DNA of 64,000 nucleotides from Shigella phage vb_GEC_SH_GT, in sequence record OR887633; one strand, given 5' to 3'. A model generated the notes under the pieces. It worked only from the letters and a program-made list of their open reading frames with translations. It searched no databases and had not been told where the DNA came from. Positions 6,120-62,917 of this stretch are shown here, in pieces. Numbering within the stretch: the first letter of the stretch is position 1; each line of letters begins with the position of its first letter. The translations under genes were made by a program, and so were the position numbers.

Positions 6120-9100
6120 ATGGCCGAGATTAAAAGAAAGTTCAGAGCAGAAGATGGTCTGGACGCAGGTGGTGATAAAATAATCAACGTAGCTTTAGCT
6201 GATCGTGCCGTAGGAACTGACGGTGTTAACGTTGATTACTTAATTCAAGAAAACACAGTTCAACAATACGATCCAACTCGTGGATATTTAAAAGATTTTG
6301 TAATCATTTATGATAACCGCTTTTGGGCTGCTATAAATGATATTCCAAAACCAGCAGGAGCTTTTAATAGCGGACGCTGGAGAGCATTACGTACCGATGC
6401 TAACTGGATTACGGTTTCATCTGGTTCATATCAATTAAAATCCGGTGAAGCAATTTCGGTTAACACTGCAGCTGGAAATGACATCACGTTTACTTTACCA
6501 TCTTCTCCAATTGATGGTGATACTATCGTTCTCCAAGATATTGGAGGAAAACCTGGAGTTAACCAAGTTTTAATTGTAGCTCCAGTACAAAGTATTGTAA
6601 ACTTTAGAGGTGAACAGGTACGTTCAGTACTAATGACTCATCCAAAGTCACAGCTAGTTTTAATTTTTAGTAATCGTCTGTGGCAAATGTATGTTGCTGA
6701 TTATAGTAGAGAAGCTATAGTTGTAACACCAGCGAATACTTATCAAGCGCAATCCAACGATTTTATCGTGCGTAGATTTACTTCTGCTGCACCAATTAAT
6801 GTTAAACTTCCAAGATTTGCTAATCATGGCGATATTATTAATTTCGTCGATTTAGATAAACTAAATCCGCTTTATCATACAATTGTTACTACATACGATG
6901 AAACGACTTCAGTACAAGAAGTTGGAACTCATTCCATTGAAGGCCGTACAACGATTGACGGTTTCTTGATGTTTGATGATAATGAGAAATTGTGGAGATT
7001 GTTTGACGGGGATAGTAAAGCGCGTTTACGTATCATAACGACTAATTCTAATATTCGTCCAAATGAAGAAGTTATGGTATTTGGTGCGAATAACGGAACA
7101 GCTCAGACAATTGAGCTTAAGCTTCCAACTAATATTTCTGTTGGTGATACTGTTAAAATTTCCATGAATTACATGAGAAAAGGACAAACAGTTAAAATCA
7201 AAGCTGCTGATGAAGATAAAATTGCTTCTTCAGTTCAATTGCTGCAATTCCCAAAACGCTCAGAATATCCACCTGAAGCTGAATGGGTTACAGTTCAAGA
7301 ATTAGTTTTTAACGGTGAAACTAATTATGTTCCAGTTTTGGAACTTGCTTACATAGAAGATTCTGATGGAAAATATTGGGTTGTACAGCAAAACGTTCCA
7401 ACTGTAGAAAGAGTAGATTCTTTAAATGATTCTACTAGAGCAAGATTAGGCGTAATTGCTTTAGCTACACAAGCTCAAGCTAATGTCGATTTAGAAAATT
7501 CTCCACAAAAAGAATTAGCAATTACTCCAGAAACGTTAGCTAATCGTACTGCTACTGAAACTCGCAGAGGTATTGCAAGAATAGCAACTACTGCTCAAGT
7601 GAATCAGAACACCACATTCTCTTTTGCTGATGATATTATCATCACTCCTAAAAAGCTGAATGAAAGAACTGCTACAGAAACTCGCAGAGGTGTTGCTGAA
7701 ATTGCTACGCAGCAAGAAACTAATGCAGGAACCGATGACACTACAATCATCACTCCTAAAAAGCTTCAAGCTCGTCAAGGTTCTGAATCATTATCTGGTA
7801 TTGTAACTTTTGTATCTACTGCAGGTGCTACTCCAGCTTCTAGCCGTGAATTAAATGGTACGAATGTTTATAATAAAAACACTAATAATTTAGTTGTTTC
7901 ACCTAAAGCTTTGGATCAGTATAAAGCTACTCCAACACAGCAAGGTGCAGTAATTTTAGCAGTTGAAAGTGAAGTAATTGCTGGACAAAGTCAGGAAGGA
8001 TGGGCAAATGCTGTTGTAACGCCAGAAACGTTACATAAAAAGACATCAACTGATGGAAGAATTGGTTTAATTGAAATTGCTACGCAAAGTGAAGTTAATG
8101 CAGGAACTGATTATACTCGTGCAGTCACTCCTAAAACTTTAAATGACCGTAGAGCAACTGAAAGTTTAAGTGGTATAGCTGAAATTGCTACACAAGTTGA
8201 ATTCGACGCAGGCGTCGACGATACTCGTATCTCTACACCATTAAAAATTAAAACCAGATTTAATAGTACTGATCGTACTTCTGTTGTTGCTCTATCTGGA
8301 TTAGTTGAATCAGGAACTCTCTGGGACCATTATACCCTTAATATTCTTGAAGCAAATGAGACACAGCGTGGTACACTTCGTGTAGCTACACAGGTCGAAG
8401 CTGCTGCAGGAACATTAGATAATGTTTTAATAACTCCTAAAAAGCTTTTAGGTACTAAATCTACCGAATCGCAAGAAGGTGTTATTAAAGTTGCAACTCA
8501 GTCTGAAACTGTGACTGGAACGTCAGCAAATACTGCTGTATCTCCAAAAAATTTAAAATGGATTGTGCAGAGTGAACCTACTTGGGCAGCTACTACTGCG
8601 ATAAGAGGTTTTGTTAAAACTTCATCTGGTTCAATTACGTTCGTTGGTAATGATACGGTAGGTTCAACACAGCCATTAGAATCATACGAGAAAAATAGCT
8701 ATGCAGTATCACCATATGAATTAAACCGTGTATTAGCAAATTATTTGCCGTTAAAAGCAAAAGCGGTAGATAGTAATTTATTGGATGGTCTAGATTCATC
8801 TCAGTTCATTCGTAGGGATATTGCACAGACGGTTAATGGTTCACTAACCTTGACACAACAAACGAATCTGAGTGCCCCTCTTGTATCATCTAGTACTGGT
8901 GAATTTGGTGGTTCATTGGCCGCTAATAGAACATTTACCATCCGTAATACAGGAGCCCCGACCAGTATCGTTTTCGAAAAAGGTCCTGCATCCGGGGCAA
9001 ATCCTGCACAGTCAATGAGTATTCGTGTATGGGGTAACCAATTTGGCGGCGGTAGTGATACGACCCGTTCGACAGTGTTTGAAGTTGGCGATGACACATC

Positions 9101-11849: not shown

Positions 11850-14800
11850 ATGGCTACTTTAAAACAAATACAATTTAAAAGAAGCAAAACCGCAGGTGCA
11901 CGTCCTGCTGCTTCAGTATTAGCCGAAGGTGAATTGGCTATAAACTTAAAAGATAGAACAATTTTTACTAAAGATGATTCAGGAAATATCATTGACTTAA
12001 GCATTTCCGCTGGTGGTAATATCAGTGGAAATGTAACTATTGATGGAACTTTACGCGTCAATGGACCAATAAACAATTTTGGAAATTTTTCCACAAGTGG
12101 CCAGATTACCGCTGGTAGTAGTATTTCAGCTCAAGTTTTTAGAGCATTGCAAGGTTCGTTTTATACAAGAGCTTCAGCCGGTGAAACAGCAAATGCCCAT
12201 TTATGGTTTGAAAATGCCGATGGCACTGAACGTGGCGTTATATATGCTCGTCCTCAAACTACAACTGCCGGTGAAATACGCCTTAGGGTTAGACAAGGAA
12301 CAGGAAGCACTACCAATAGTGAATTCTATTTCCGCTCTATAAATGGAGGCGAATTTCAGGCTAACCGTATTTTAGCTTCGGATGCATTAGTAACAAAACG
12401 CATTGCGGTTGATACTGTTATTCACGATGCCAAAACGTTTGGACAATATGATTCTCACTCTTTGGTCAACTATGTTTATCCTGGAACAGGTGAAACAAAC
12501 GGAATCAATTACCTTCGCAAATTCCGTGCTAAATCTGGTGGTACAATTTATCATGAATTAGCTTCTGCGCAAACCGGAAAAAGTGATGAACTTTCTTGGT
12601 GGACTGGTAATACAGCGGTTAATAAACAAATGGGCCTTCGCAATGATGGATCTTTAGTATTACGACGTTCACTTGCAATTGGTACAATTACAACAGATGA
12701 AAACATCAATAACTACGGTTCCACTGGAGCAATGGGTGAATGTTATATAGTTATTGGTGATGCATCAACAGGTTTATCATACAAAAAAACTGGGGTATAT
12801 GACTTAGTTGCTAGTGGTCTTTCTGTAGCATCTATTACTCCTGATAGTTTCCGTAGTACTCGTAAAGCATTATTTGGACGTTCAGAAGACCAAGGTGGTA
12901 CGTGGCTTCTTCCTGGTCAGAACGCAGCTCTTCTTTCAGTTCGTACTGAAGTTGACCAAAATAATAACGGAGATGGTCAGACACATATTGGCTATAATAG
13001 TAATGGTAAATTTTATCATTATTTTAGAGGCAGAGGAAGAATGGCCATTGGAATGGCCGAAGGACTTATTGTTGAACCAGGAATTTTAGATATTAAAACT
13101 AGTTCAAATACATTAAGTTTGCGTGCTGATGGTACCGTCGCTTCTGTTCAAACATTAAAGCTTAATAATGGATTATATTTTAATAGTGATGGAACTAACG
13201 CTTCTCTAATTTTTAAAGCAGCTTCAGGTATTGATGGTACTAAACAGATACTTTGGGAAGGTGGTACTCGTGCTGGGCAGAATAAGAGCTATGTAGCTGT
13301 TAAAGCATGGGGTAATTCATTTAACGCATCTGGCGATCGTAATCGTGAAACGGTTTTTGAAGTAGCTGATGGGCAAGGATATTATTTTTATTCACAGCGT
13401 GTGGCTCCAAGTGGCTCTGAAACTACTGGGCCTGTTGTAACCCAGTTCAATGGACAAGTTAATGCTAGAGGAAGTATTATTACTGACGGAAGTTTTAAAG
13501 TTAATGGATTAAGCACTTTAGTCGGTAATGTTACTATGTCTAATGGTTTGTTTGTCCAAGGTGGTTCTTCTATTACTGGACAGGTAAAAATTGGTGGAAC
13601 GGCTGATGCATTAAGAATTTGGAATGCTGAATACGGTGCTATTTTCCGCCGTTCAGAAGCGTCATTACATATTATCCCTACTCCTAAAGATGCCGGTGAA
13701 AGCGGTGGAATAAGTAATCTCCGCCCACTTAGTATTAGCCTTAATAATGGTATGGTGCAAATGCGTCATTCCGTTACATTAGGTGATGATGGCGCAGGCG
13801 GTAATATGGTGACGGTTGATAATGATTCTAAAGTTATGGTAATGACGACTAATAGCCGTATTAGTCCTAACTTCCGTATGCAAATTGGACAGTCGTCTTA
13901 TATTGATGTGGAATGTACTGATGCTGTGAGACCTGCTGGAGCCGGTTCTTTTGCTTCACAGAATAACGAAAACGTTCGCGCTCCGTTCTATATGAATATT
14001 GATAGAACAGATACAAGCACTTATGTTCCTATTGTGAAACAAAGATACGTTCAAAATAATAGTTGCTATTCTATTGGTACTTTAATTAATGGTGGTAACT
14101 TTAGAGTTCATTATCATGAAGGCGGTGACGGCGTTTCTACTGGTGCTATTATAAAGGATCTTGGATGGGAATTTAATAAAAACGGTGATTTTTATTCTCC
14201 TGGTAAATTAGGCGCTGGAAATATTAGAATAGGTACTGATGGTAATATTACTGGCGGAACTGGTAACTTTGCTAACTTGAACACAACTATCGAATCATTA
14301 AAAACCGATATTGTTTCAAGTTATCCTATTGGAGCTCCTATTCCATGGCCTACAGATACTCCTCCTAATGGTTACGCTATTATGGAAGGACAGACTTTTG
14401 ATAAGTCTGCATACCCAAAATTGGCTATAGCTTACCCATCTGGAGTAATTCCTGATATGCGCGGGCAAACTATCAAAGGTAAACCAAGCGGTCGTGCTGT
14501 GTTAAGTGCAGAAGCTGATGGTGTTAAGGCTCATAACCATAGTGCTTCAGCATCTAATACTGATTTAGGTACTAAAACTACATCAAGCTTTGATTATGGC
14601 ACTAAGACGACAAGTAGCTTTGATTATGGCACTAAGACTAGCAATACCACAGGTAACCACTCTCATACTGTAAGCGGTACTACGAGTTCTGCTGGTGCAC
14701 ACCAACATGCGCGCTCAGGTCCTCAGATACAAGCCGGCATACCCAATAACATATTCTATGACGGATATAATAGTGTAGGTGCAAACGCCAACGCTAAATT

Positions 14801-15077
14801 CACTGGAACCGTGAACGGTGCTACTGCAGGGTCGAATATAGCCAAAACTTCTTCAGACGGTGCTCATACTCATACTTGGTCTGGTACTACAAGCACTACA
14901 GGTAACCATGCTCACACAGTAGGTATTGGTGCTCATACCCATACTGTAGGTATCGGTGCTCATACCCACACGGTAGCAATTGGCTCGCATGGTCATACTA
15001 TCACTGTAAATAGTACAGGTAATACAGAAAACACGGTTAAAAACATTGCTTTTAACTATATCGTTCGTTTAGCATAA
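11850..15077 (+). CDS. 37: long tail fibre distal subunit / receptor-binding adhesin gp37
   Basis: 1075-aa ORF; C-terminal His-x-His boxes (GNHSHT, GAHTHT, GSHGHT); segment homologous to gp34 (WGNxF...TVFEV...YFYSQR). Confidence 0.9.
14568..14640 (+). repeat. in-frame 30-bp tandem repeat encoding [10 protein letters not shown] x2 plus partial third copy
   Basis: units 14568-14597 and 14598-14627 differ at 7 synonymous positions. Confidence 0.85.
14919..14999 (+). repeat. in-frame 27-bp tandem repeat x3 encoding His-box units VGIGAHTHT / VGIGAHTHT / VAIGSHGHT
   Basis: units 14919-14945, 14946-14972, 14973-14999; first two differ by 3 synonymous nt. Confidence 0.85.
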
Positions 15078-15107
15078 GGAGAGGGGCTTCGGCCCCTTCT
15101 AAATATG
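15077..15107 (+). promoter_or_regulatory. gene 38 translation initiation region with hairpin between SD and AUG
   Basis: AAGGAG at 15077-15082, GGGGC-TTCG-GCCCC hairpin 15084-15097, ATG at 15105; 22-nt linear SD-AUG spacing. Confidence 0.5.
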
Positions 15108-15656
15108 AAAATATATCATTATTATTTTGACACTAAAGAATTTTACAAAGAAGAAAATTACAAACCGGTTAAAGGCCTCGGTCTTCCTGCTCATTCAACA
15201 ATTAAAAAACCTTTAGAACCTAAAGAAGGATATGCAGTTGTATTTGATGAACGTACTCAGGATTGGATTTATGAAGAAGACCATCGCGGAAAACGAGCAT
15301 GGACTTTTAATAAAGAAGAAATTTTTATAAGTGAAATTGGAAGCCCGGTTGGTATAACTTTTGATGAGCCCGGCGAATTTGATATATGGACTGATGACGG
15401 TTGGAAAGAAGACGAAACATATAAGCGAGTTTTAATTCGTAATAGAAAAATTGAAGAATTATATAAAGAGTTCCAAGTTTTAAATAATATGATTGAAGCT
15501 TCTGTCGCCAATAAAAAGGAAAAATTTTATTATAAAAACCTTAAGCGGTTCTTTGCTCTTTTAGAAAAGCATGAGCATTTAGGTGGTGAATTCCCTTCAT
15601 GGCCTGAAAAAGAACGGAAACCTTGGTATAAGCGTTTATTCAAGCATTACGTATAA
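15105..15656 (+). CDS. 38: tail fibre assembly/adhesin chaperone gp38 (T4-type, 183 aa)
   Basis: 183-aa ORF immediately after 37. Confidence 0.8.
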   Translation: MKIYHYYFDTKEFYKEENYKPVKGLGLPAHSTIKKPLEPKEGYAVVFDERTQDWIYEEDHRGKRAWTFNKEEIFISEIGSPVGITFDEPGEFDIWTDDGWKEDETYKRVLIRNRKIEELYKEFQVLNNMIEASVANKKEKFYYKNLKRFFALLEKHEHLGGEFPSWPEKERKPWYKRLFKHYV

Positions 15657-23824: not shown

Positions 23825-24761
23825 ATTTAAATTGTTCAGTAACGTCTTCAACTACTTCGTATTGGCAGGTACGCATTTTAGCATCGTTGTAATCAATCGG
23901 AATTGATACTACATCGCGAGGATGAACTTTAACTTTTACAACTCGGCTGGTTGAACTACCAAAGTGACGAATATAAGATTTAGAACACACATGCAGACCG
24001 CGAGAACAAGTCTGTGTATCATCGTCATTCACACGAGTACGTGGCATTTTAACTACTTTACCCGGACTGTTATCAAAGGTGTTTGAGTGACAGTCAAAGT
24101 AATTGCTGCGAACTACTTTCCAAGCATAGAAGTAACCATCTTCTGTAATTTCAATATCGTTTGCTACTAAGAAATCAAAGAGTCGAGATACCGCTTTTTG
24201 GCTTGGGTTTTCCAGCAGATTTTCCAAGAACGGGAAATAAAATTCAAAGTTTTCGCCTTTTTCCATCGAGTCAAGAATACGATCAACTAAACCAGACCGC
24301 AATTCAATATTTTGATAGAACAAGCTTCCACCTTCAATTCGAACATCGCCGGAAATATATTTTTCAACAGCGCGACGAACATTAATTTTTTGTGCCGCTT
24401 CTTCCAACTTATCTGCTACAAGCAGATTAAGAATTTCCTGGAAGTTTGAATGAGTATTAGGAGTTGCGTTATAAGTTACACCGTCAACAGTAATTGAAAT
24501 GAATTTTTTAGATGCATTCCAAATAATGTCAGATTTAGCAACTGGAGCAATAACTGCATCGCTATTAACTTTAACTGTAATATCACCGCTAATAGTAACT
24601 TTAGGGCGTTTAGCTTCTTCAGCATTTTTCAAAACACGACGGATTGTGTCAACCGATACATCCTTCCAATAAGCTAATTCCTGCTGGGTGTAATTACCAC
24701 TTGAATACAGTTTGACAATTTCAGCTTGTTCGTTTTTGGTCAGGCATTTAATATTGTACAT
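23823..24761 (-). CDS. rIIB: rIIB membrane-associated protein
   Basis: 312-aa ORF; sequence and position. Confidence 0.85.
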   Translation of the reverse strand: MYNIKCLTKNEQAEIVKLYSSGNYTQQELAYWKDVSVDTIRRVLKNAEEAKRPKVTISGDITVKVNSDAVIAPVAKSDIIWNASKKFISITVDGVTYNATPNTHSNFQEILNLLVADKLEEAAQKINVRRAVEKYISGDVRIEGGSLFYQNIELRSGLVDRILDSMEKGENFEFYFPFLENLLENPSQKAVSRLFDFLVANDIEITEDGYFYAWKVVRSNYFDCHSNTFDNSPGKVVKMPRTRVNDDDTQTCSRGLHVCSKSYIRHFGSSTSRVVKVKVHPRDVVSIPIDYNDAKMRTCQYEVVEDVTEQFK

Positions 24762-24772
24762 AATTTTCCTTA

Positions 24773-26950
24773 TTAGGCTGCAAGGGCCTTCATAGTTTTA
24801 GCGATTTGGGAAACTTCATCATCACTTAAAGAGTTGCGATAACCGATGAAGTCGGAAACGATACGGAATTTCTTGGTAAACTCAGCAACCATTTTATCAC
24901 TATTTTTTGAAGCATTATTTGATAATACATCAAAAAGATTAGTTACTGTCCAGATGTCATGACCGATGGTACCTTTTCCACCGTTGAAATATATACCCTG
25001 CAATGAACTAACCATATTACCAAGGCGAGTATATTCTTCAGAAACTTCATCTACACTGAAGTACTTCATCATAAAATCGAGTTCAGGATACTTAATAATT
25101 TTATCAATATATCGTTTAGCTGAACTTGAATAACCTACATACTTATCATAATCTACAGCATCAAAAGCATCTACATATAAATCACGCAGAGTTTCAAAAA
25201 TACATTGGCACTGACCAAGTTCTTTTACCTTTTTCTGTAAAAGTGGACGAATAACATAAAATTCATTAATGCCAATAAGATTAGCCATACGAGTCAAAAT
25301 ACTCGTAGATGGATTACAAAGCGATGTAGTACCATCCATAGAGAAAATATCAGAACGATGCATGTATGCTACGTAACCAGTAATTTCATCTGCTTCTGAT
25401 GTGAGCGTAAACAGTTCCTCTTTTTCCCAACGCCCGTCTTTAATTTCAAACTTAAATGCAGTAGCAGCTTTAGGACGAGGAGCTTTACTTTTAACTGCCT
25501 TTGGAATATAACTTTTAACTAAAGCTTCAATTTCTGACAAATAATGAATGTTAACTTCATCACTTTCAAACATTGCCATAATATCAGGAAGTAAATCAAT
25601 CTGCGATTCTACTTCCGGATTAATAAACAGAAGACGCTCATTATGATGAATATTCAAAGTGTTATTAAATTCACTATCATCTAACGCATGCGCTAATCCA
25701 CGGACAATATTAACACGATTTTTAATATTATCAATAACGATATTAATTTTTGTTGTATTAATACCGAACAGACGATAACTTGATGCAATGGCTGAAGTTT
25801 CATGACTTTGCTTAATGCGTTTCAGTCGAGGGTCAAGATTTACTTCATACACAACTCCTGCATTGCATAACTTACTATCAGGTTCAAACATGCTTTGCAT
25901 CTTCTTATATGACAGATTTTTAGTCGTGAATTTGACTGAATTACTAATCATATAATCTCGAGCAGAATATCCCATCTTCATCAATTCACGATATGTATGA
26001 CGGGGAGATGTGGATTCTTTAAATCGTTTTACATCTTCATTGAATGCCTTCTCACTAAGCTCTTTAACACGCTCAATAATATTTTTACGAGTACGATCAT
26101 CTAGTGAAAGAGCCTCACGAGATGGAGCAATATCAAGTGAACCCATTGGAAACTTAATGTAATTCACTTCATTGCGAATGCTTAGCCAGTTACGATCTCT
26201 AATAACACCATCGATAGGATAAACAATACCGCCATAGATAGCATATAATCCACCACGATCTGACCAGTATCTTTCTGGATTTACGCCATAATAATCATCA
26301 AAATCCGGAAAATAATCAATTTCGCGGTCAAGACCATTAATGATAGCCAAATCTTTGAATGGTCGCATGATATAAGAAACTTCATAAGCAAAGTTTCTAA
26401 AGTCTTTTTCTTCAACTGGAACCACGATTTCAATACCAGTTTTATCATCTGGACCCATTTCTTTTACGAATGTAGGTTTAATCTGTGGACCATCACCATC
26501 CATGTAAGCTACATAACCACGAATTTCACCTTTATGATACGAAGTAATACTAAACGTATCAGTATAACTAAATGGAGATTTAGAACCTAAACCAAATCCG
26601 CCAATAAAGTCATTAGATTCAGCTTTAGATGAACTGAAGTATGAATTATACAACCCAGGAGAATTATCATCACCTTGAATATCAAAATCACTCATACCCG
26701 GACCAAAATCTCGACAAACAAATCGTGGGTCTAAACGTCCAGGAACTTGTATGATAAATTTTTCAGGATTTCCATTGAGAGCATGGGCATCAATCATGTT
26801 TGTAATCAATTCACGGACTACTGCGCGAATCTTGTTTGTATACAAATCAGATGACAGAATTTTAAATACTTTAGGATTTGCTGCGATGCTAAATGCTTTT
26901 GATTTAGAACCATTACCAAGAATTGTTTCTTTTTCAGTGGTGATAATCAT
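24773..26950 (-). CDS. rIIA: rIIA protein (GHKL-type ATPase domain)
   Basis: 725-aa ORF; N-terminal GHKL motifs ([24 protein letters not shown]). Confidence 0.85.
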
Positions 26951-39965: not shown

Positions 39966-40202
39966 TTAACCACCTATTTGTGTAGGCGTAAACATTGCAG
40001 CATTCTTAGTTTTCCAGTCAGCTGCATCAGAAACTACAGTAGAATATGCCGCCTTTTCAGAAGGAAAGGTCTGATAATGAGAATCTGCAATACGGTGTTC
40101 ATTTGAATATACATCAAATGCTACAGAAACTTCCATACCTTTAACTTCTTTGCCTTCACCCGCTGGATGAGTAAAGGTCTTGATGTTAACGAAACCACCC
40201 AT
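39966..40202 (-). CDS. soc: small outer capsid protein Soc (divergent variant)
   Basis: 78 aa; conserved core VNIKTF...VSVAF...HYQTFPSEKAAYSTV; late promoter 32 nt upstream. Confidence 0.75.
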   Translation of the reverse strand: MGGFVNIKTFTHPAGEGKEVKGMEVSVAFDVYSNEHRIADSHYQTFPSEKAAYSTVVSDAADWKTKNAAMFTPTQIGG

Positions 40203-40233
40203 AATAAACTCCTTTATTGTTTAATTACAAGTG

Positions 40234-40241
40234 TATTTATA
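40234..40241 (-). promoter_or_regulatory. late promoter TATAAATA for soc
   Basis: exact TATAAATA on minus strand inside the 3' end of the HNH ORF. Confidence 0.6.
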
Positions 40242-41073
40242 AACCATTTTCAAACCTCTTTATCATATTTATATAGTTTTCATCGGGATAACCTAGACTA
40301 ACTGCTAACTTTCTAAAATTGACATATTTAGGTTTGTTGTTATTAATCCATAATTCTCTAAGCTCTTTTTCATAATTCCATTTAAGTTGATTTCTGCGTG
40401 CAGTTTTGCTTAAAGTTTTTCCTTTAGCTTTTAAAGCTTTTTCGGATGATTGTTTTAATTTTTGAATATTTAAAACTTCTTCTATAGATAAATTATTTTC
40501 CTTTGAATACCTTATGCAAAAATCTTTTACTACGGCTATTAGGCAATTTTTGTGAGTACCTAAAATTTCTGGATTATTTTCTTCAACTAAAATTCCCCAA
40601 TATCTTCTGTAGCGAGGCATATCCCTTGAAATCCAGTCATTATACCAAAAATCAAAGTTGGAATACATGAAAGATTTTCTTTTGCGAAGAGTATCTTGGT
40701 TTATCCATTGCTCACGTTTATCAGCCCATAACTTAATAGTAAAGTCTTTCTCTAAGTCAGAAAGCTTCTTAAATTGCGAGCTATTTACTGAGGTCATTCT
40801 CTGGAATGCATTTAGCAATCCAAATCTTCCAGTTGAACATAAGAGATAGTGAACATATATGTGTTGATATATTGGGAGATATACTCTATTCCAAGGATAT
40901 ATTTTAAAATCACTATACTCAGGAAATGCGCATTTAGGAAGTATATGATGGGCTTCTGTTTTAGATTTAATGTGAGTGTTTAACTTATACTTATCTATAA
41001 TTTTTAAGTACTCATCTAAAAGTTCCCATTGCGGGAACTTTTCTTTAAGAGCAGATTTGAAATTAATATCCAT
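40237..41073 (-). mobile_element. putative HNH-family homing endonuclease
   Basis: 278 aa from ATG at 41073 (track start is TTG); TEAHHILPKC motif; basic C-terminal half. Confidence 0.45.
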
Positions 41074-41581
41074 TATCTTGACGTTCAAAATTATGTTTGT
41101 TCTTCAGGTAATAAAGTTTAAAGATTTCTTCAGCTGTAAGACCAAGACCCTGGAACATATTCAGAACGAAATGAAGAATATCAATCATTTCAAATTTAAT
41201 TTCTAACTGGTCTTGCGGAGACAAATCAGTAATTAGAGTTTCACGGCGTTCACCATGTTGAGCTTTCCAAGGCTTCCATACAGCAGATGCATCTTTTTCG
41301 CCATTGCTCATACCGCCAAGAGAAGTTAGAAGTTCGCGGAATTCATCATCAATATAATCTTTCTGATTGCGCAGCCAATCAACAACTTCACCTGCGGTAG
41401 CCAAATCATCAGGATGACGGTTATATTCAGGTTTATCTTTAGCTAAACGAACCTGTAGAGATTTCTGCATATCAAGCATAACCTGCAGCGGGTCTTTTTC
41501 ATCACCAAGAATATCCCAGTATTCATTTTGAGCTTTATCAACACCTTCGATCAAATGAGCGCATTCATTAAAATATGCCAT
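41063..41581 (-). CDS. 56: dCTP pyrophosphatase gp56 (MazG-like)
   Basis: ATG at 41581 (MAYFNEC...); sequence and position. Confidence 0.8.
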   Translation of the reverse strand: MAYFNECAHLIEGVDKAQNEYWDILGDEKDPLQVMLDMQKSLQVRLAKDKPEYNRHPDDLATAGEVVDWLRNQKDYIDDEFRELLTSLGGMSNGEKDASAVWKPWKAQHGERRETLITDLSPQDQLEIKFEMIDILHFVLNMFQGLGLTAEEIFKLYYLKNKHNFERQDNGY

Positions 41582-41641
41582 TATTTTTCCTTTCAATTCA
41601 TCAATAAGTTAAATAATTATATCATTTGAATATGTAAGCAA

Positions 41642-42430
<789 letters not shown>

Positions 42431-47181: not shown

Positions 47182-47526
47182 TTAAAAGAATTTAAATTTT
47201 TTCTTTGACCTTTTATTAAATGCATCTTGTAGTTGCATTGTAATACATTTTTCTACATGAGGAGCTAACTCAGCTTTTCTTTCTTGGTCAAGAACAGCAA
47301 AGTCCATTACGACTTTTCCATCAACCCAATCTAATTTTGTCACATACACAATGTGTGTAGAACCGTCTTCTAGTTTAATGACAATCTCCTGGATAACATT
47401 TTCCATGGCAGATTTAATTATCTTAAGAGATTCATTAAAAAGACGTTCTTTTCTTTCTTCTTCCCCCTCCGAAGAGGGGGATTCGTCGATAATTTCTAGA
47501 TCTAAATCTAAATCATCTTTATTCAT
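47182..47526 (-). CDS. 40: gp40-position protein
   Basis: ATG at 47526 (track start 47544 is GTG); acidic N-terminus. Confidence 0.5.
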   Translation of the reverse strand: MNKDDLDLDLEIIDESPSSEGEEERKERLFNESLKIIKSAMENVIQEIVIKLEDGSTHIVYVTKLDWVDGKVVMDFAVLDQERKAELAPHVEKCITMQLQDAFNKRSKKKFKFF

Positions 47527-48700
47527 TAAATTCTTCCATATCACTTAACTGATCTAGGTCAGTTTCTAAATCAGCCGCTGATTTACTTTTACTTTCTGGA
47601 GATTTAAATTTTTCAACCTTTGAGTTAATCAATTCATCAACTTCAGCTTCAACAATTTCATTACTATCAATAGCACCTAACTGATAAGCACGTTTAATAG
47701 CATCTCGGAATGGCTGATGCTTAAATAAAGGACCCCAGAATGTAGTGCAATTGGTATCTTTTGCACGCCAAGATTTTTCTTCGCGAATCATCTCACCGGT
47801 TTCTTCATCAAGAAATTCACGAGCATACCAACCATTTTTAGGTTTTACCACAAATCCTAATTCAAGAGCCATATCTAACAATCCAGAATAAGGATCGATA
47901 CCACCGTCAAATTTAACATCAATAAAGAATTTACTTTTTTCTTTGACGGTACGAGATTTTTCTACATTTAGAACAAATTGATACCCCTGAAGATCAGAAC
48001 CATCTTTAATCTGGCGCTTACCGATAATGAATACAGTATCAGCCGAATACATTACGCCTGTACCACCTGTCATCACGGTTTTACTAAACATTTCAATTGT
48101 TTCAATTGTATGGTTAACCGCAACACATGGAATGTTTTTAATACTAAAATAAGGAGTAACAATACGGAATAATGACTTCAGCGATTTAGCACGAGTCATA
48201 TCTGCCACAGATTTTTCATTCAAGGCATCTTCCGTTTCTTTCTTAGAAGCCATATTACCGATTGAGTCGATGAATACAATAACCTTTTCACCACGCTCAA
48301 TAGCTTCAAGCTGATTCACCATATCAATTTTCAGCTGTTCAACTGACTGGATTGGTGTATGAATTACTCGTTCCGGGTCAACTCCCATAGATCGCAAATA
48401 AGCTGGAGTAATACCAAATTCGCTATCATAGAATAAACAAACCGCATCAGGATATTTGTTCAAATACGCCGCAACCATAGTCAAAGACATATTTGATTTA
48501 AAGTGTTTAGAAGGACCTGCAAAAATGGTTAAACCAGACTGCATACCACCGTCAATCGCGCCGGAAATAGCGATATTGAGCATTGGAATTTTTGTACGAA
48601 TTACATCCTTTTCGTTAAAGAATTTAGATGTAGTCAGTTCAGCAGTCATTTTAGAAGTGGAAGCTTTAATCAAACGGGATTTTAAATCTGCAATAGACAT
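47519..48700 (-). CDS. uvsX: RecA-like recombinase UvsX
   Basis: 393 aa; RecA-fold Walker A GPSKHFKS. Confidence 0.9.
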   Translation of the reverse strand: MSIADLKSRLIKASTSKMTAELTTSKFFNEKDVIRTKIPMLNIAISGAIDGGMQSGLTIFAGPSKHFKSNMSLTMVAAYLNKYPDAVCLFYDSEFGITPAYLRSMGVDPERVIHTPIQSVEQLKIDMVNQLEAIERGEKVIVFIDSIGNMASKKETEDALNEKSVADMTRAKSLKSLFRIVTPYFSIKNIPCVAVNHTIETIEMFSKTVMTGGTGVMYSADTVFIIGKRQIKDGSDLQGYQFVLNVEKSRTVKEKSKFFIDVKFDGGIDPYSGLLDMALELGFVVKPKNGWYAREFLDEETGEMIREEKSWRAKDTNCTTFWGPLFKHQPFRDAIKRAYQLGAIDSNEIVEAEVDELINSKVEKFKSPESKSKSAADLETDLDQLSDMEEFNE

Positions 48701-48777
48701 TCATTTTTTCCATAGGCATCATTATATTTTCCTCACTGGTTAAAGATAGAGTAATTATAACACAATAAATTTAGGCA

Positions 48778-49620
48778 TTAATCAACTGCTATTGGATGAA
48801 TAGCATTAAACTTATGAAACGCTTCTGATTTTTCTTTGCGCGAAACACACATGCGAAGAACCTTTAATGGCTCGTCTTCTTCACCTAATGATTTTCGTTT
48901 TTCAATATTAGAAGTTTTCCAACGAGCTTGCTCTGGAAATTCTCTATTGATTTGCTCAAGAGCTCTATTATGTTTTGAATTACTACGAATTGAACTACAT
49001 CCACCCGGAGCCTGCGCTTTTCCAGACACAACCAGATATTTGAACAAGGCCAAATGCGGATAACCTTGATTAATTAAATTGAGAAATGCATACATATCTT
49101 CGCATAAATCAATTTTTCCATACCCAATTTGTTCTGTTGTAAGTTTTCCAAGGTCATACCATGTATTCGTGAATCCATATGAATTTTCACGATAATTACC
49201 CCAAGATGAAGTAATTTTAAAAATTGGTAAACGAGCATGACCATGATAATACCCGCAATCCATGGCATCTTCAACGTATTGAATCAATTCATAGAACTGT
49301 TCACCAGTTAACTGATTAATTTTATCTACGCAGCGACGATCATCTTTCTTTCGCATTGAACTCATACGAATAGTAGTATCATCATCAATCATCCAAATTC
49401 GCTGACCTGCATACATATCAGTAATCGCTTTACGAGTACCAGCAATTCCATTGACATCATCAGGAATAGTTATAATTTTAGCTCTAGACCCATAAGCATC
49501 ATAATAAGCTTTTTCTTCGTGTTCACGTACTACAATATGTGGTTCATAATCAGATGGAAACATATCAAGGGCAGAAACTGCCCCTACGCGTTGATAGCTT
49601 GGAATTACAAATTGAATCAT
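48778..49620 (-). CDS. GT-A fold glycosyltransferase (candidate beta-glucosyl-HMC alpha-glucosyltransferase)
   Basis: 280 aa; N-terminal VIPSYQR and DDD motif; occupies the slot between uvsX and 42. Confidence 0.5.
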   Translation of the reverse strand: MIQFVIPSYQRVGAVSALDMFPSDYEPHIVVREHEEKAYYDAYGSRAKIITIPDDVNGIAGTRKAITDMYAGQRIWMIDDDTTIRMSSMRKKDDRRCVDKINQLTGEQFYELIQYVEDAMDCGYYHGHARLPIFKITSSWGNYRENSYGFTNTWYDLGKLTTEQIGYGKIDLCEDMYAFLNLINQGYPHLALFKYLVVSGKAQAPGGCSSIRSNSKHNRALEQINREFPEQARWKTSNIEKRKSLGEEDEPLKVLRMCVSRKEKSEAFHKFNAIHPIAVD

Positions 49621-50357
49621 TTCCACTCACCGTTATAATCTTTTTTCGCAATATGAGTTTCGCCAGTTTTCCACCAATGGTCAACCAAATAAAAATGACG
49701 AGAATACACATGAAGGCTTCCGACATTCCATATAATGGAACCTGCTTTATACTGACGAGTTGAATCACCTGCATTCAAATCAGATACTAATTTATCTAGT
49801 ACGTATTTTTGCCATGCATAATCATTACGGAATCCGAAGACCACGTCATTTGAACGCATGTTTACTACTGCATTGACTTTCTTGTCACGAATCAGGTACT
49901 GTACTGTATTCGTACACATGAAATCTGACATACCATCTTTGTTGTAGTCAAACTGCATGGATGGACGAGTATAAATCATGATACCACGTCGAGAATCAGG
50001 ATTTTGACCAAGTTCAGCTAAACACATATCATACTGAGCATAGTTATCTTCTGACCAGATGGCCCAACCATAATTTGAGTTAATTTCGCCTTTAGAAGAT
50101 GCTACCTGCTGCCAAATCTTGGGTGTTTCACCTGGAATATCTTTAACAAACAGACTTTGAGACTTATACCATTCAAGTTCACGCTGAATGTATTCATCAT
50201 TAAGAGCGCCAAAAATAAAATGTTCATCTGCTACAAATGATGCACCAATAATTTCAATAGTTTTAACACCGGTTTTATCAATTACGAAATCTTTTTCCTT
50301 TAATGCAAGACCCAAATCAAGACGGATTTCTTCAACTGTCATATAATCGTTAATCAT
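49617..50357 (-). CDS. 42: dCMP hydroxymethylase gp42
   Basis: 246 aa; thymidylate-synthase-like fold. Confidence 0.85.
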   Translation of the reverse strand: MINDYMTVEEIRLDLGLALKEKDFVIDKTGVKTIEIIGASFVADEHFIFGALNDEYIQRELEWYKSQSLFVKDIPGETPKIWQQVASSKGEINSNYGWAIWSEDNYAQYDMCLAELGQNPDSRRGIMIYTRPSMQFDYNKDGMSDFMCTNTVQYLIRDKKVNAVVNMRSNDVVFGFRNDYAWQKYVLDKLVSDLNAGDSTRQYKAGSIIWNVGSLHVYSRHFYLVDHWWKTGETHIAKKDYNGEWK

Positions 50358-50364
50358 TTAAACC

Positions 50365-50514
50365 TCAATTGATGCATTCATATTTAATTTGTAACAGTAA
50401 TAAACTCCAACCTATAATAAGTGGCGGAATCATAAGAGGAACTGTTACGCTATAGTATATACTTATTATAATCATCAAGATTAAAAGCAATACTGCTAAA
50501 ATTTTGCTTTTCAT
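50365..50514 (-). CDS. small membrane protein (49 aa, imm.1 position)
   Basis: manual ORF; ATG overlaps imm stop. Confidence 0.35.
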   Translation of the reverse strand: MKSKILAVLLLILMIIISIYYSVTVPLMIPPLIIGWSLLLLQIKYECIN

Positions 50515-50762
50515 TCCTTCTCTCTGATGATAATTACTTGATTTTGCTGTACAGATTTTTTAGTTTCACCCGCAATTGACCAAATAAATGTAATAAACCA
50601 ACCAATGATTGACCAGTTAAACAGTAAAGATGTGAAAAAGATTCCTACTGTCGATTTTGACCCACGCATCAAGGCGATGAACCATGGAAGCATGTATATA
50701 ATAATAGCCAACACGCCTGAAACTAAAACCATAAAAATTGAACCTGCTACTAAAGTTTCCAT
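50511..50762 (-). CDS. imm: superinfection immunity protein Imm
   Basis: 83 aa; two TM helices. Confidence 0.8.
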   Translation of the reverse strand: METLVAGSIFMVLVSGVLAIIIYMLPWFIALMRGSKSTVGIFFTSLLFNWSIIGWFITFIWSIAGETKKSVQQNQVIIIREKE

Positions 50763-57677: not shown

Positions 57678-58394
57678 ATGAATTATAAACTAATTTATGA
57701 AAAGTTAATCTCTAATGCTAAATCTCGAAAACTTGATTGCTATACTGAATCTCATCACATTATACCACGCTGTTTAAATGGCAGCGATGATGCTTCAAAC
57801 TTAGTAGATTTAACACCAGAAGAGCACTATGTAGCTCATCAACTTTTAGTAAAAATTTATCCTTCTGAACCAAAATTAGTCTATGCTGCTAACATGATGA
57901 CAGTTTCCACGAAATACGCTAAACGCAACAATAAAACTTTCGGTTGGATTCGTCGTAAACTCTGGGAAATAGAAAAGAATAAAGAATTCTCCCAGGAGAC
58001 ACGAAAGAAAATGTCTAATGCAGTAGCTAATAAAGCAAGACTAACTTGTCCTCATTGCGGTAAATCTGGATTAAGCGGGAATATGAATCGATGGCATTTT
58101 GATAACTGCCCTAATCACCCTAATCCTAAAGTTAGACCACCGATGTCTAAAGAACACAGAAATAATATCTCAAACGGACTTAAAGCAATCGTTCTTGAAG
58201 AAACATCCTGCGAATTCTGCGGAATGATAGGCAAGAAATGCGTTATCGCAGCGCATAGAAATTTCTGCAAGAAAAATCCAAATGGACGCAAGAAAACTGA
58301 AAAGACTGGTACTTGCGTCCATTGTGGTAAAGTTACCACTTTCGGAAATTTATCAAGGTGGCATAATGATAACTGTAAATATAAACCTAGCTAA
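57678..58394 (+). mobile_element. HNH homing endonuclease with C-terminal zinc-finger-like repeats
   Basis: 238 aa; HNH motif ESHHIIPRCLNGSDDASNLVDLTPEEHYVAH; three CxxCG...WHxDNC units; opposite strand to flanking genes. Confidence 0.7.
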
Positions 58395-60075
58395 TCTTAG
58401 CTAAACTAAATCTACCAACTTTTTCCATCTGAATATGCTGACCATATTCTTGTGGGTCATGGTCTTTATGCGAAATTATGAAGAAGTTGGTATCCTTCAA
58501 ACCATCTAAAATTTTAGCTACATTTTTAATACCTTCAGCATCAAATGCGCCGTCATACACTTCATCAAGAAATAAACAACTTATTTTAACACCTGAAACT
58601 TTTTCAGCAATATCACGCCAAGTAAATAAAAGAGCAATATCAATTCGTGCTTTTTCACCTTGACTAAATGAAGCATAACTAAAATCTTCACGACCACGGG
58701 ATTTAATTGTCTCATTAAATTCTTCATCTAATGTAAACACATAATCCGCTTCCATTATTTTAAGATAATGGTTAATCTGCTTATTAAATAATGGAATGTA
58801 CTTTTTAATAATAGCACCTTTAATACCAGAATCTTTGAGCATATCAGTCAAAATTCCTCTGTGGTATTTTTCCATTACTAAATTAGTTTTTGTCTTAACA
58901 ATTTTATCAAGTTCTTCTTGAAGCAGTGCTATTTCATCGGCATGGTCAATAAACTCAGATGATGCTTTTTCTATAGCCGCTTTAACTTTTTTAGCTTTAT
59001 CTACCGTCGTGATTAAGGATTGCTTTTTATTGCGAATATCATTTGCCAATGACTGTTGGGTTTTAATATTATCTCGGTATTCATCAACAAGAACTTTTAA
59101 ATTATCACGATGTGTTGAAAGCTGTTCAAACGAATGCGTGCATTCAGAAACTTTATCTTTAATTTTAGAAACAACTTTATCACCGGAACTTAATTGTGAC
59201 AAACAGGTTGGACATAATCCACCTTCGTGATACATATTAATGACTTTATTATACGAGTCAATTTTTGATTTAATCAAAACTGCTTCTTGACCGATTTTAT
59301 TAAATGCATCAGTCGGATCTTCATCTAAAACAATATTAACTAATCTTTCATTAGCTTCTTCTATTTCCGATTTTAGCGTTCTAGCTTCCTTTGCCAAATC
59401 ATCATACATATTCTGCAGACGAGTAAGATTGTCACCAGATAATTTTTTCTGACGTTCAACATTATCATTATATATTTTAATTTGTTGGATAATACTATCT
59501 TTTTTAACATCAAGCACTTGGTTTTGTGAATTTAATTCACGTATTAGTGCTTTATTAAGCTTATCCATTTCAGCTAATGTTCCTACTTCGAGCAGGTCTT
59601 CGACAAGCTTTCTTCTTGCAGGAGTGGATAGGCCCATGAAAGGGGTATATCCAGCCGTGCCGAGTACGACGATCTGTTTGAAACTGGCGTATGACATTCC
59701 GATAAGCTGTTCAAATTCTGCTTGGAAATCTTTACTGCTGGCAGATTCATTAAGACGTGTACCGTTAACGGTGATTTCGAAAACATTTGGTTTTTGTCCT
59801 CTTTTGATATAGTACTTTTTCTCATCATATTCCATCCACAGTTCAACTAAAAGCTCTTTCTTATTTGTACTGTTTATTAATTGACCTTTCTTTACATCAC
59901 GAAATGGCTTGCCAAAAAGCCCAAATGTGATGGCTTCTAACATAGTAGACTTACCGCCGCCATTTCGCCCAGTAATAAGAGTTTTTTGAACCTTATCTAG
60001 TTGAATGTCAATAGGATTTCCACCTACTGACATTATATTTTGATACCTAACTCGGTTTAGTTTAAAATTCTTCAC
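58387..60075 (-). CDS. 46: recombination endonuclease subunit gp46 (Rad50/SbcC-like ATPase)
   Basis: 562 aa; Walker A GRNGGGKST; central coiled coil with CPTC zinc hook; GTG start with AAGGAA SD. Confidence 0.85.
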   Translation of the reverse strand: MKNFKLNRVRYQNIMSVGGNPIDIQLDKVQKTLITGRNGGGKSTMLEAITFGLFGKPFRDVKKGQLINSTNKKELLVELWMEYDEKKYYIKRGQKPNVFEITVNGTRLNESASSKDFQAEFEQLIGMSYASFKQIVVLGTAGYTPFMGLSTPARRKLVEDLLEVGTLAEMDKLNKALIRELNSQNQVLDVKKDSIIQQIKIYNDNVERQKKLSGDNLTRLQNMYDDLAKEARTLKSEIEEANERLVNIVLDEDPTDAFNKIGQEAVLIKSKIDSYNKVINMYHEGGLCPTCLSQLSSGDKVVSKIKDKVSECTHSFEQLSTHRDNLKVLVDEYRDNIKTQQSLANDIRNKKQSLITTVDKAKKVKAAIEKASSEFIDHADEIALLQEELDKIVKTKTNLVMEKYHRGILTDMLKDSGIKGAIIKKYIPLFNKQINHYLKIMEADYVFTLDEEFNETIKSRGREDFSYASFSQGEKARIDIALLFTWRDIAEKVSGVKISCLFLDEVYDGAFDAEGIKNVAKILDGLKDTNFFIISHKDHDPQEYGQHIQMEKVGRFSLAKIS

Positions 60076-61698: not shown

Positions 61699-61716
61699 AA
61701 AGGGCCGAAGCCCTTT
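61699..61716 (-). other. C(UUCG)G RNA hairpin after a-gt
   Basis: AAAGGGC-UUCG-GCCCUUU. Confidence 0.5.
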
Positions 61717-62917
61717 ATTTTGTAATAATGTCAAACTGTTCTTTAAAGCAGAAGCTTGAATCTTGGTGCTGATACAAAAATTCATAAGCTTTTTCACGTT
61801 CACGGTCATAAAGAGCTCGGTCAGATGACAGTTCTTTAATACGTTCAAATGTTGATTCCATGTCATTTTCATCAAACCAAACGATACCGCTATCATGAGA
61901 AATTAACGGAGTGTTATCAACACGGAATTTTAAATTTTCACCAGTAGATTTCCAAAATACTGGAATTGTTCCACATGCGCCAAGCTCGAGATGAGTATAT
62001 TCTAAAGAACGCTGCAGATATTTTTTGTCCAACTTGCTCAGCTGATAACCAAATCCGGATTTACTCATGCGTTCAAGCATTTCGCTATTTACATAACGGT
62101 CGAGAATTTGCGTTGGCAAATTAGGAGCAATTTTAATTTGGTCTACCTGATGAAGACGATAATACTCATATGGAATTCCTTTTTCTTTAATAGGAATGAA
62201 CGCTGGAGAACGTTCCAGACCTTCCATAATAGTACTTAGTCCTGCAGGTTTAAGATGTTTTTCGTGAAAATCAAACATCTGATAAAATCCTTTCCATGTA
62301 GTAGTACGACCAATCCAACGGTTGATATTCATGTTAATTTCAGAAACATCTTTCCAGTAGGTTGATCGAACCTTCGCAATATCCATAGGAGGCTGAAAGT
62401 TATATACGGTCGGTGCTTCTTCAATATCATCAAACAAAGAAACAGTTTCCGGATACCATTCTTTCATTAAAACTTTATTAAAATCACCATTATCAGAATG
62501 GCTAAAAATAACATCAGCCCGACGAACAGTTTCTTCTAATCCCAAATTTCGACGCAAAGAAAGAGAAGAATGGTCATGTTGATAAACTACAACACGAACC
62601 GAAGGTTTAATGTTATCAATAATTTTTTTATAGTTATTAATAGTGTCTTCTTCGACTGAAGTAGCAGGAACTGAATTGATAACTAGAATATCACAATCAT
62701 TTACCAGCTTAAGTGTTTTATCGTATTCTTTTGCCAATAAAACCGGAATTGAAAATGACTTATAATCATGCGCGCAATTACGGGTAAATGATTTATCTTT
62801 AGCATAAACCAAAGTTACTTCATGACCATTTTTAATAAACCAATCACGCTGCTCAAGAGAAAATTTAGTTACACCGCAACCTTCAAGACCTCGAGCCATA
62901 AAAATGCATACTTTCAT
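61715..62917 (-). CDS. a-gt: DNA alpha-glucosyltransferase
   Basis: 400-aa ORF; sequence and position. Confidence 0.8.
   Translation of the reverse strand: MKVCIFMARGLEGCGVTKFSLEQRDWFIKNGHEVTLVYAKDKSFTRNCAHDYKSFSIPVLLAKEYDKTLKLVNDCDILVINSVPATSVEEDTINNYKKIIDNIKPSVRVVVYQHDHSSLSLRRNLGLEETVRRADVIFSHSDNGDFNKVLMKEWYPETVSLFDDIEEAPTVYNFQPPMDIAKVRSTYWKDVSEINMNINRWIGRTTTWKGFYQMFDFHEKHLKPAGLSTIMEGLERSPAFIPIKEKGIPYEYYRLHQVDQIKIAPNLPTQILDRYVNSEMLERMSKSGFGYQLSKLDKKYLQRSLEYTHLELGACGTIPVFWKSTGENLKFRVDNTPLISHDSGIVWFDENDMESTFERIKELSSDRALYDREREKAYEFLYQHQDSSFCFKEQFDIITK

Follow-up and report, generated by a model that had tools for sequence, protein, structure and literature searches.

A T2/T6-type DNA glucosyltransferase gene between gene 42 and uvsX in Shigella phage vb_GEC_SH_GT

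In phage T4, the slot downstream of gene 42 holds the beta-glucosyltransferase gene b-gt (351 aa, the length given in an earlier note on this DNA), then the homing endonuclease gene segA (GIY-YIG), and then uvsX. We analyzed a 64,000-nucleotide stretch of the genome of Shigella phage vb_GEC_SH_GT (OR887633; hereafter, the window), in which the same slot is occupied by a single ORF of about 280 codons. This arrangement raises two questions: which enzyme the ORF encodes, and what that enzyme would do to the hydroxymethylcytosine (hmC) of the phage DNA. We put at roughly nine in ten the probability that the ORF is an orthologue of ba-gt of T2 and T6 (also g-gt or TAGT; glucosyl-DNA beta-glucosyltransferase), the enzyme that adds a second glucose to alpha-glucosyl-hmC. 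The slot and its flanks comprise the following features.

47519–48700, minus strand: uvsX, the downstream flank of the slot, outside the modification pathway (PHROG 97, UvsX-like recombinase, E=1e-109)
48778–49620, minus strand: ba-gt (g-gt, TAGT), placed by its ORF, sequence, homology to T2/T6, Pfam, PHROG, fold model, and invariant residues
49617–49620, minus strand: a shared ATGA in which the stop of gene 42 (TGA) and the start of ba-gt (ATG) overlap, read from the sequence (...GAG TGG AAA TGA)
49617–50357, minus strand: gene 42, dCMP hydroxymethylase, the source of the hm-dCMP precursor (T4 gp42 homology; PHROG 160)

The gene between gene 42 and uvsX

The listed minus-strand ORF starts at a GTG and spans 48778–49626 (282 aa). 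An ATG two codons inside it (position 49620) gives an intact protein of 280 aa that ends at a TAA stop (48780–48778), and this start agrees with the 843-nt CDS annotation of the closest relatives. Upstream lies a 246-aa ORF with 96% identity to T4 gp42 over 245 aa, and downstream a spacer of only 77 bases (48701–48777) leads to uvsX, with the segA of T4 absent. The ORF map and these two flanking matches thus bear out the position given in the earlier note, a 280-aa protein between uvsX and gene 42. The four-base overlap with gene 42 is annotated likewise in phage Killian and T2; as read from the sequence, it implies that ba-gt would be co-transcribed with the hydroxymethylase gene, and translation of the two genes is probably coupled. 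A scan of positions 48600–50600 for promoters and terminators returned counts near those of shuffled sequences and nothing useful.

The window protein shares 98% amino acid identity with the T2 protein annotated as "beta-glucosyl-HMC-alpha-glucosyl-transferase" (over 280 aa) and 98% with its T6 orthologue (over the 261 aa of the annotated T6 CDS), and its identity to the phage Killian protein rounds to 100%. All three genomes (T6: MH550421; T2: LC348380; Killian) have a gene so annotated in the slot between gene 42 and uvsX. This search result and the shared slot uphold the earlier suggestion of a T2/T6-type glucosyltransferase. PHROG 842 ("beta-glucosyl-HMC-alpha-glucosyltransferase") matches residues 1–275 (E=1e-88), and Pfam PF20691 (TET-associated glycosyltransferase, TAGT) matches at 37.8 bits (gathering cut-off: 27.5 bits) over profile positions 2–205 of 205. 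The 280-aa length, the slot between gene 42 and uvsX, the ATGA junction, and the partner alpha-gt are all common to the window and to T2/T6. The window copy differs by substitutions at R11 (H in T2), S23 (T), K92 (R), I101 (V), G106 (R/H), and P251 (S in T2), and none of the separating substitutions falls in an invariant column of the family alignment. Our analysis of this genome directly shows orthology and synteny of the gene, the fold class and conserved motifs of its product, and an accompanying alpha-gt.

The relationship to the T4 enzyme is of a different kind. A BLASTP comparison of the window protein with T4 b-gt gave a best value of only E=3.3, that is, no similarity, and a tblastn search of the whole 64-kb window with T4 b-gt found no homologue (best E=0.88), as expected from the earlier claim that the protein differs from the T4 GT-B enzyme. 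Both enzymes share the genomic slot downstream of gene 42, and T4 beta-gt (GT-B, PDB 1JG7) is likewise a UDP-glucose-dependent inverting transferase that acts on phage hmC DNA. However, T4 beta-gt has a GT-B fold, whereas a GT-A fold is assigned to the window enzyme (PMC13216743; fold matches below). The acceptor of the T4 enzyme is naked hmC, whereas that of the T2/T6-type enzyme is alpha-glucosyl-hmC, and only T4 carries segA between b-gt and uvsX.

Fold and candidate catalytic residues

A sequence search against PDB chains found no solved relative of the window protein (best E=1.4), so the fold class was drawn from a model. A word-indexed homologue search of a large protein database returned 12 proteins, down to ~30% identity, and the query with ten relatives formed a shallow alignment of 11 rows for AlphaFold2. 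The resulting model has a mean pLDDT of 80.8 and a pTM of 0.82, with one disordered stretch (residues 131–149, pLDDT below 50). The best Foldseek matches in the PDB were L. monocytogenes RmlT, S. aureus TarS and TarP, WrtF, and the E. coli chondroitin polymerase K4CP, followed by nucleotidyltransferases of the same superfold. The matches to these GT-A/GT2-type enzymes (probability 1.00, TM about 0.5) support the fold class and not close kinship. In common with the window protein, the GT2-like GT-A enzymes have the fold and a DXD after a hydrophobic strand, and would share an acidic pair that starts a helix; they differ in sequence (11–15% identity only) and in substrate, which is teichoic acid or polysaccharide and not DNA. 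For the T6 protein, an AlphaFold3 model gave a GT-A fold in a sister group of GT2 (PMC13216743). The model matches, with PF20691 above its cut-off, agree with the GT-A-like character first read from the sequence.

The two motifs reported earlier were recovered in the window protein: VIPSYQR at residues 5–11 and DDD at residues 79–81. In the model, strand 74–77 (I-W-M-I) runs directly into D79-D80-D81, an hhhhDXD arrangement (I75-W-M-I-D79-D80-D81), and C173-E174-D175, a candidate xED motif, stands at the start of helix 174–184. Among homologues with as little as 31% identity, no change is seen at D79, D80, D81, or D175, and E174 is nearly invariant. Transfer of glucose from UDP-alpha-glucose to give a beta-glucoside requires an inverting mechanism. 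In inverting GT-A enzymes, the catalytic base is usually the Asp of an xED motif with which helix alphaF begins (PMC7185993). Based on position and conservation, we infer the DXD and xED assignments, in which the DDD would hold a divalent metal and the UDP diphosphate, and D175 would be the catalytic base.

Distribution and annotation across phages

A megablast search of 50,697 phage records found the ba-gt ORF in 490 of them, mainly Escherichia, Shigella, Salmonella, and Yersinia phages. Nearly all of the 474 records that cover at least 80% of the ORF do so at 90–99% nucleotide identity. Judged by this conservation across phage records, which excludes a chance ORF, ba-gt of the window is a real conserved gene. 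DNA of the T4-type b-gt was present in 29 phage records, namely T4, its laboratory derivatives, and a few RB phages. Because b-gt occurs in 29 records and the TAGT-type gene in 490, T4 is the exception in its genus at this locus, and most Tequatrovirus genomes have the T2/T6-type gene. The earlier note had implied that a GT-A gene in this slot is unusual, and these counts contradict that part of its reading. The same picture holds across 753 phages that encode one or more T-even-type glucosyltransferases: alpha-GT and beta-GT occur together in only a handful, and in the vast majority either alpha-GT or beta-GT is accompanied by a TAGT (PMC13216743). The gene and its slot are the ordinary T2/T6-type textbook arrangement, which was described in 2024–2026 with its GT-A fold, the slot shared with T4 beta-GT, gentiobiosyl-hmC detected by mass spectrometry, and T6 deletion phenotypes (PMC13216743, PMC13390438, PMC11078745). 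Positions 40000–64000 of the window share ~96–97% identity with many Tequatrovirus genomes but match none of them exactly.

Where the records with the ba-gt ORF name its product, the name is usually "beta-glucosyl-HMC-alpha-glucosyl-transferase" or "glucosyl transferase", and product names at the ba-gt/b-gt locus are unreliable. In RB55 (KM607002.1) and RB59 (KM607003.1), the gene at 24364–25419 is a T4-type GT-B b-gt (100% identical to T4) mislabelled "beta-glucosyl-HMC-alpha-glucosyl-transferase", and the T2 TAGT gene bears the gene symbol "b-gt". The ba-gt gene is damaged in two public T6 records, differently in each. In MH550421.1, a TAG is found at codon 10 (about 7951–7953), which is why the CDS is annotated from M20 (261 aa), and in AP018814.1 (2135–2974), one Asp of the invariant DDD is gone (WMIDDTTI, 279 aa). 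These lesions are either sequencing errors or laboratory-stock mutations, and they are worth knowing because T6 serves as the reference for high gentiobiosylation.

Two other parts of the window were recorded in passing. A plus-strand ORF of 238 aa (57678–58394) matches homing endonucleases (PHROG 655, E=9e-69); it sits between the rpbA/45.2 region and gene 46 (58387–60075, minus strand), the start of which it overlaps with its end, and neither T2 nor T6 has a gene annotated there. Plus-strand ORFs at 11850–15077 (1075 aa) and 15105–15656 (183 aa) lie at the expected place of the long tail-fibre genes 37 and 38, as judged from their sizes. A gp38 of 183 aa would correspond to the chaperone of T4 rather than to the longer adhesin of the T2/T6 type; if this reading of ORF sizes is true, the phage would have a fibre tip like that of T4 together with DNA glucosylation like that of T2/T6.

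Expected modification of the phage DNA

Apart from gene 42 and ba-gt, the window holds the following genes that bear on DNA modification.

41063–41596, minus strand: gene 56, dCTPase, start codon uncertain (Pfam dUTPase_2 C-terminal match; annotation in relatives)
41642–42421: dam (Pfam MethyltransfD12)
61715–62917, minus strand: a-gt, DNA alpha-glucosyltransferase, which makes the ba-gt acceptor alpha-glucosyl-hmC (Pfam PF11440 AGT; PHROG 2888)

The a-gt gene, which the earlier note had also placed in this phage, is full length (PF11440: E=5e-236 over the full profile; PHROG 2888: E=9e-222). Relatives annotate the gene 56 stretch as dCTPase or dCTP pyrophosphatase. Between soc and gene 56 is a minus-strand ORF of 283 aa (40237–41088) that has no Pfam match and is named an HNH/homing endonuclease in relatives; a query of this ORF with gene 56 (40200–41620) was covered to at least 80% in only about 30 of the 731 matching phage records. 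The ORFs beside dam (40237–41596) are thus gene 56 and a homing/HNH endonuclease, and are uninformative for the Durham modification groups.

We infer the modification pattern of this phage from the T2/T6 scheme, and the chemistry and knockout phenotype would be those published for the T6 orthologue. In that pathway, gp56 and gp42 would swap dCTP for hm-dCTP, with gp56 keeping unmodified dCTP out of the precursor pool, and replication would then incorporate 5-hmC. Alpha-gt would add an alpha-linked glucose to about three quarters (~75%) of the hmC residues, and the GT-A enzyme, an inverting transferase with UDP-glucose as donor, would add a second glucose beta-1,6 onto the first to give gentiobiosyl-hmC, as described for T2 and T6 (PMC6024577, PMC11078745, PMC13216743). 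For the T6 orthologue, the evidence for this transfer comes from deletion mutants and analysis of phage DNA (PMC11078745, 10.64898/2026.02.25.707755, PMC13390438). About a quarter of hmC would remain unglucosylated, as in T2 and T6. Beta-glucosyl-hmC would not be expected, because no T4-type beta-gt lies within the window; this absence applies to 64 kb of the genome, which include the ba-gt slot that beta-gt occupies in T4. Ten natural Tequatrovirus isolates from Durham that carry alpha-GT and TAGT without beta-GT contain hmC, alpha-glucosyl-hmC, and alpha-gentiobiosyl-hmC, and no beta-glucosyl-hmC (HPLC/MS, PMC13390438).

The extent of the second glucosylation cannot be predicted from sequence, because the share of gentiobiosyl-hmC is ~5% in T2 and 72% in T6 although their enzymes are near-identical (PMC11078745, PMC6024577). 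The gene could therefore be intact and contribute little, as does the 98% identical T2 gene, leaving DNA that is essentially mono-alpha-glucosylated with a few per cent gentiobiosyl-hmC. We consider this unlikely, although it is the best of the alternatives. Natural isolates vary in their ratios of hmC to alpha-glucosyl-hmC to alpha-gentiobiosyl-hmC (about 1:2:2 to about 1:0:2) and form at least two ratio classes (PMC13390438), in line with a variable contribution. However, gentiobiosyl-hmC is substantial in all ten Durham isolates (from about 40% up to about two thirds; PMC13390438), which makes T2 the apparent low outlier, and a low contribution would be a quantitative variant of second-step glucosylation and not a contradiction of it. 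There is a slim chance that G106, R11, K92, and other substitutions, or the genomic context, set an unusual mono- to di-glucosyl ratio in this phage. If true, such substitutions could help explain the 5% and 72% obtained from 98%-identical enzymes, but the sequence holds no pointer to such an effect.

It is highly improbable that the protein is a primary glycosyltransferase acting directly on hmC, or one that transfers a sugar other than glucose (e.g., arabinose), instead of a second-step enzyme. The TAGT family is broader than ba-gt, with distant members in phages that have neither alpha-GT nor beta-GT (PMC13216743), PF20691 is a general family, and arabinose is the sugar of other T-even relatives, among them RB69 and NP (PMC6024577, PMC13390438). 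Nevertheless, at 98% identity to the T2/T6 enzyme a switch of donor or acceptor is unlikely, alpha-gt is intact in the window, T6 deletion data put the orthologue after alpha-gt (PMC11078745), and the precursor enzyme is the T4-type hydroxymethylase (96%) and not the 5-hydroxy-dCMP synthase of arabinosylating phages. An RB69-type arabinosyltransferase was rejected on the T4-type gp42, the presence of alpha-gt, and the 98% identity to T2/T6. We give almost no credence to a decayed or non-functional remnant: the T6 records with ba-gt lesions (amber codon 10; one DDD Asp lost) indicate that the gene is dispensable in the laboratory, but the window copy is full length, keeps every family-invariant column and the ATGA coupling to gene 42, and has 97–98% nucleotide identity to many independent isolates.

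The preferred reading, second-step glucosylation by a T2/T6-type enzyme, met no contradicting observation; it bears only on the annotation of the gene and on the prediction of phenotype. That a second glucose alters sensitivity to modification-dependent defence, as the earlier note anticipated, is documented for T6 (PMC11078745, 10.64898/2026.02.25.707755). Without ba-gt, T6 has DNA with alpha-glucosyl-hmC only and is more sensitive to the Brig1 glycosylase; in vitro, Brig1 degrades the DNA of the T6 ba-gt deletion and not that of wild-type T6, and gentiobiosyl-hmC DNA resists (PMC11078745). Similarly, the BapA hydrolase cannot take glucose off gentiobiosyl-hmC, and it frees glucose from the DNA of T6 without g-gt and not from wild-type T6 DNA (bioRxiv 10.64898/2026.02.25.707755). 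Brig3 takes advantage of the naked hmC (~25%) in T2 and T6 (10.64898/2026.02.25.707755), and GmrSD still targets gentiobiosyl-hmC (PMC13216743). Based on this published T2/T6 work, the DNA of vb_GEC_SH_GT would be expected to contain roughly 25% naked hmC together with alpha-glucosyl-hmC and gentiobiosyl-hmC, and no beta-glucosyl-hmC. The phage would thus be susceptible to GmrSD-type enzymes and to glycosylases directed at hmC (e.g., Brig3), and the second glucose would partially shield it from Brig1 and make its DNA resistant to de-glucosylation by BapA.
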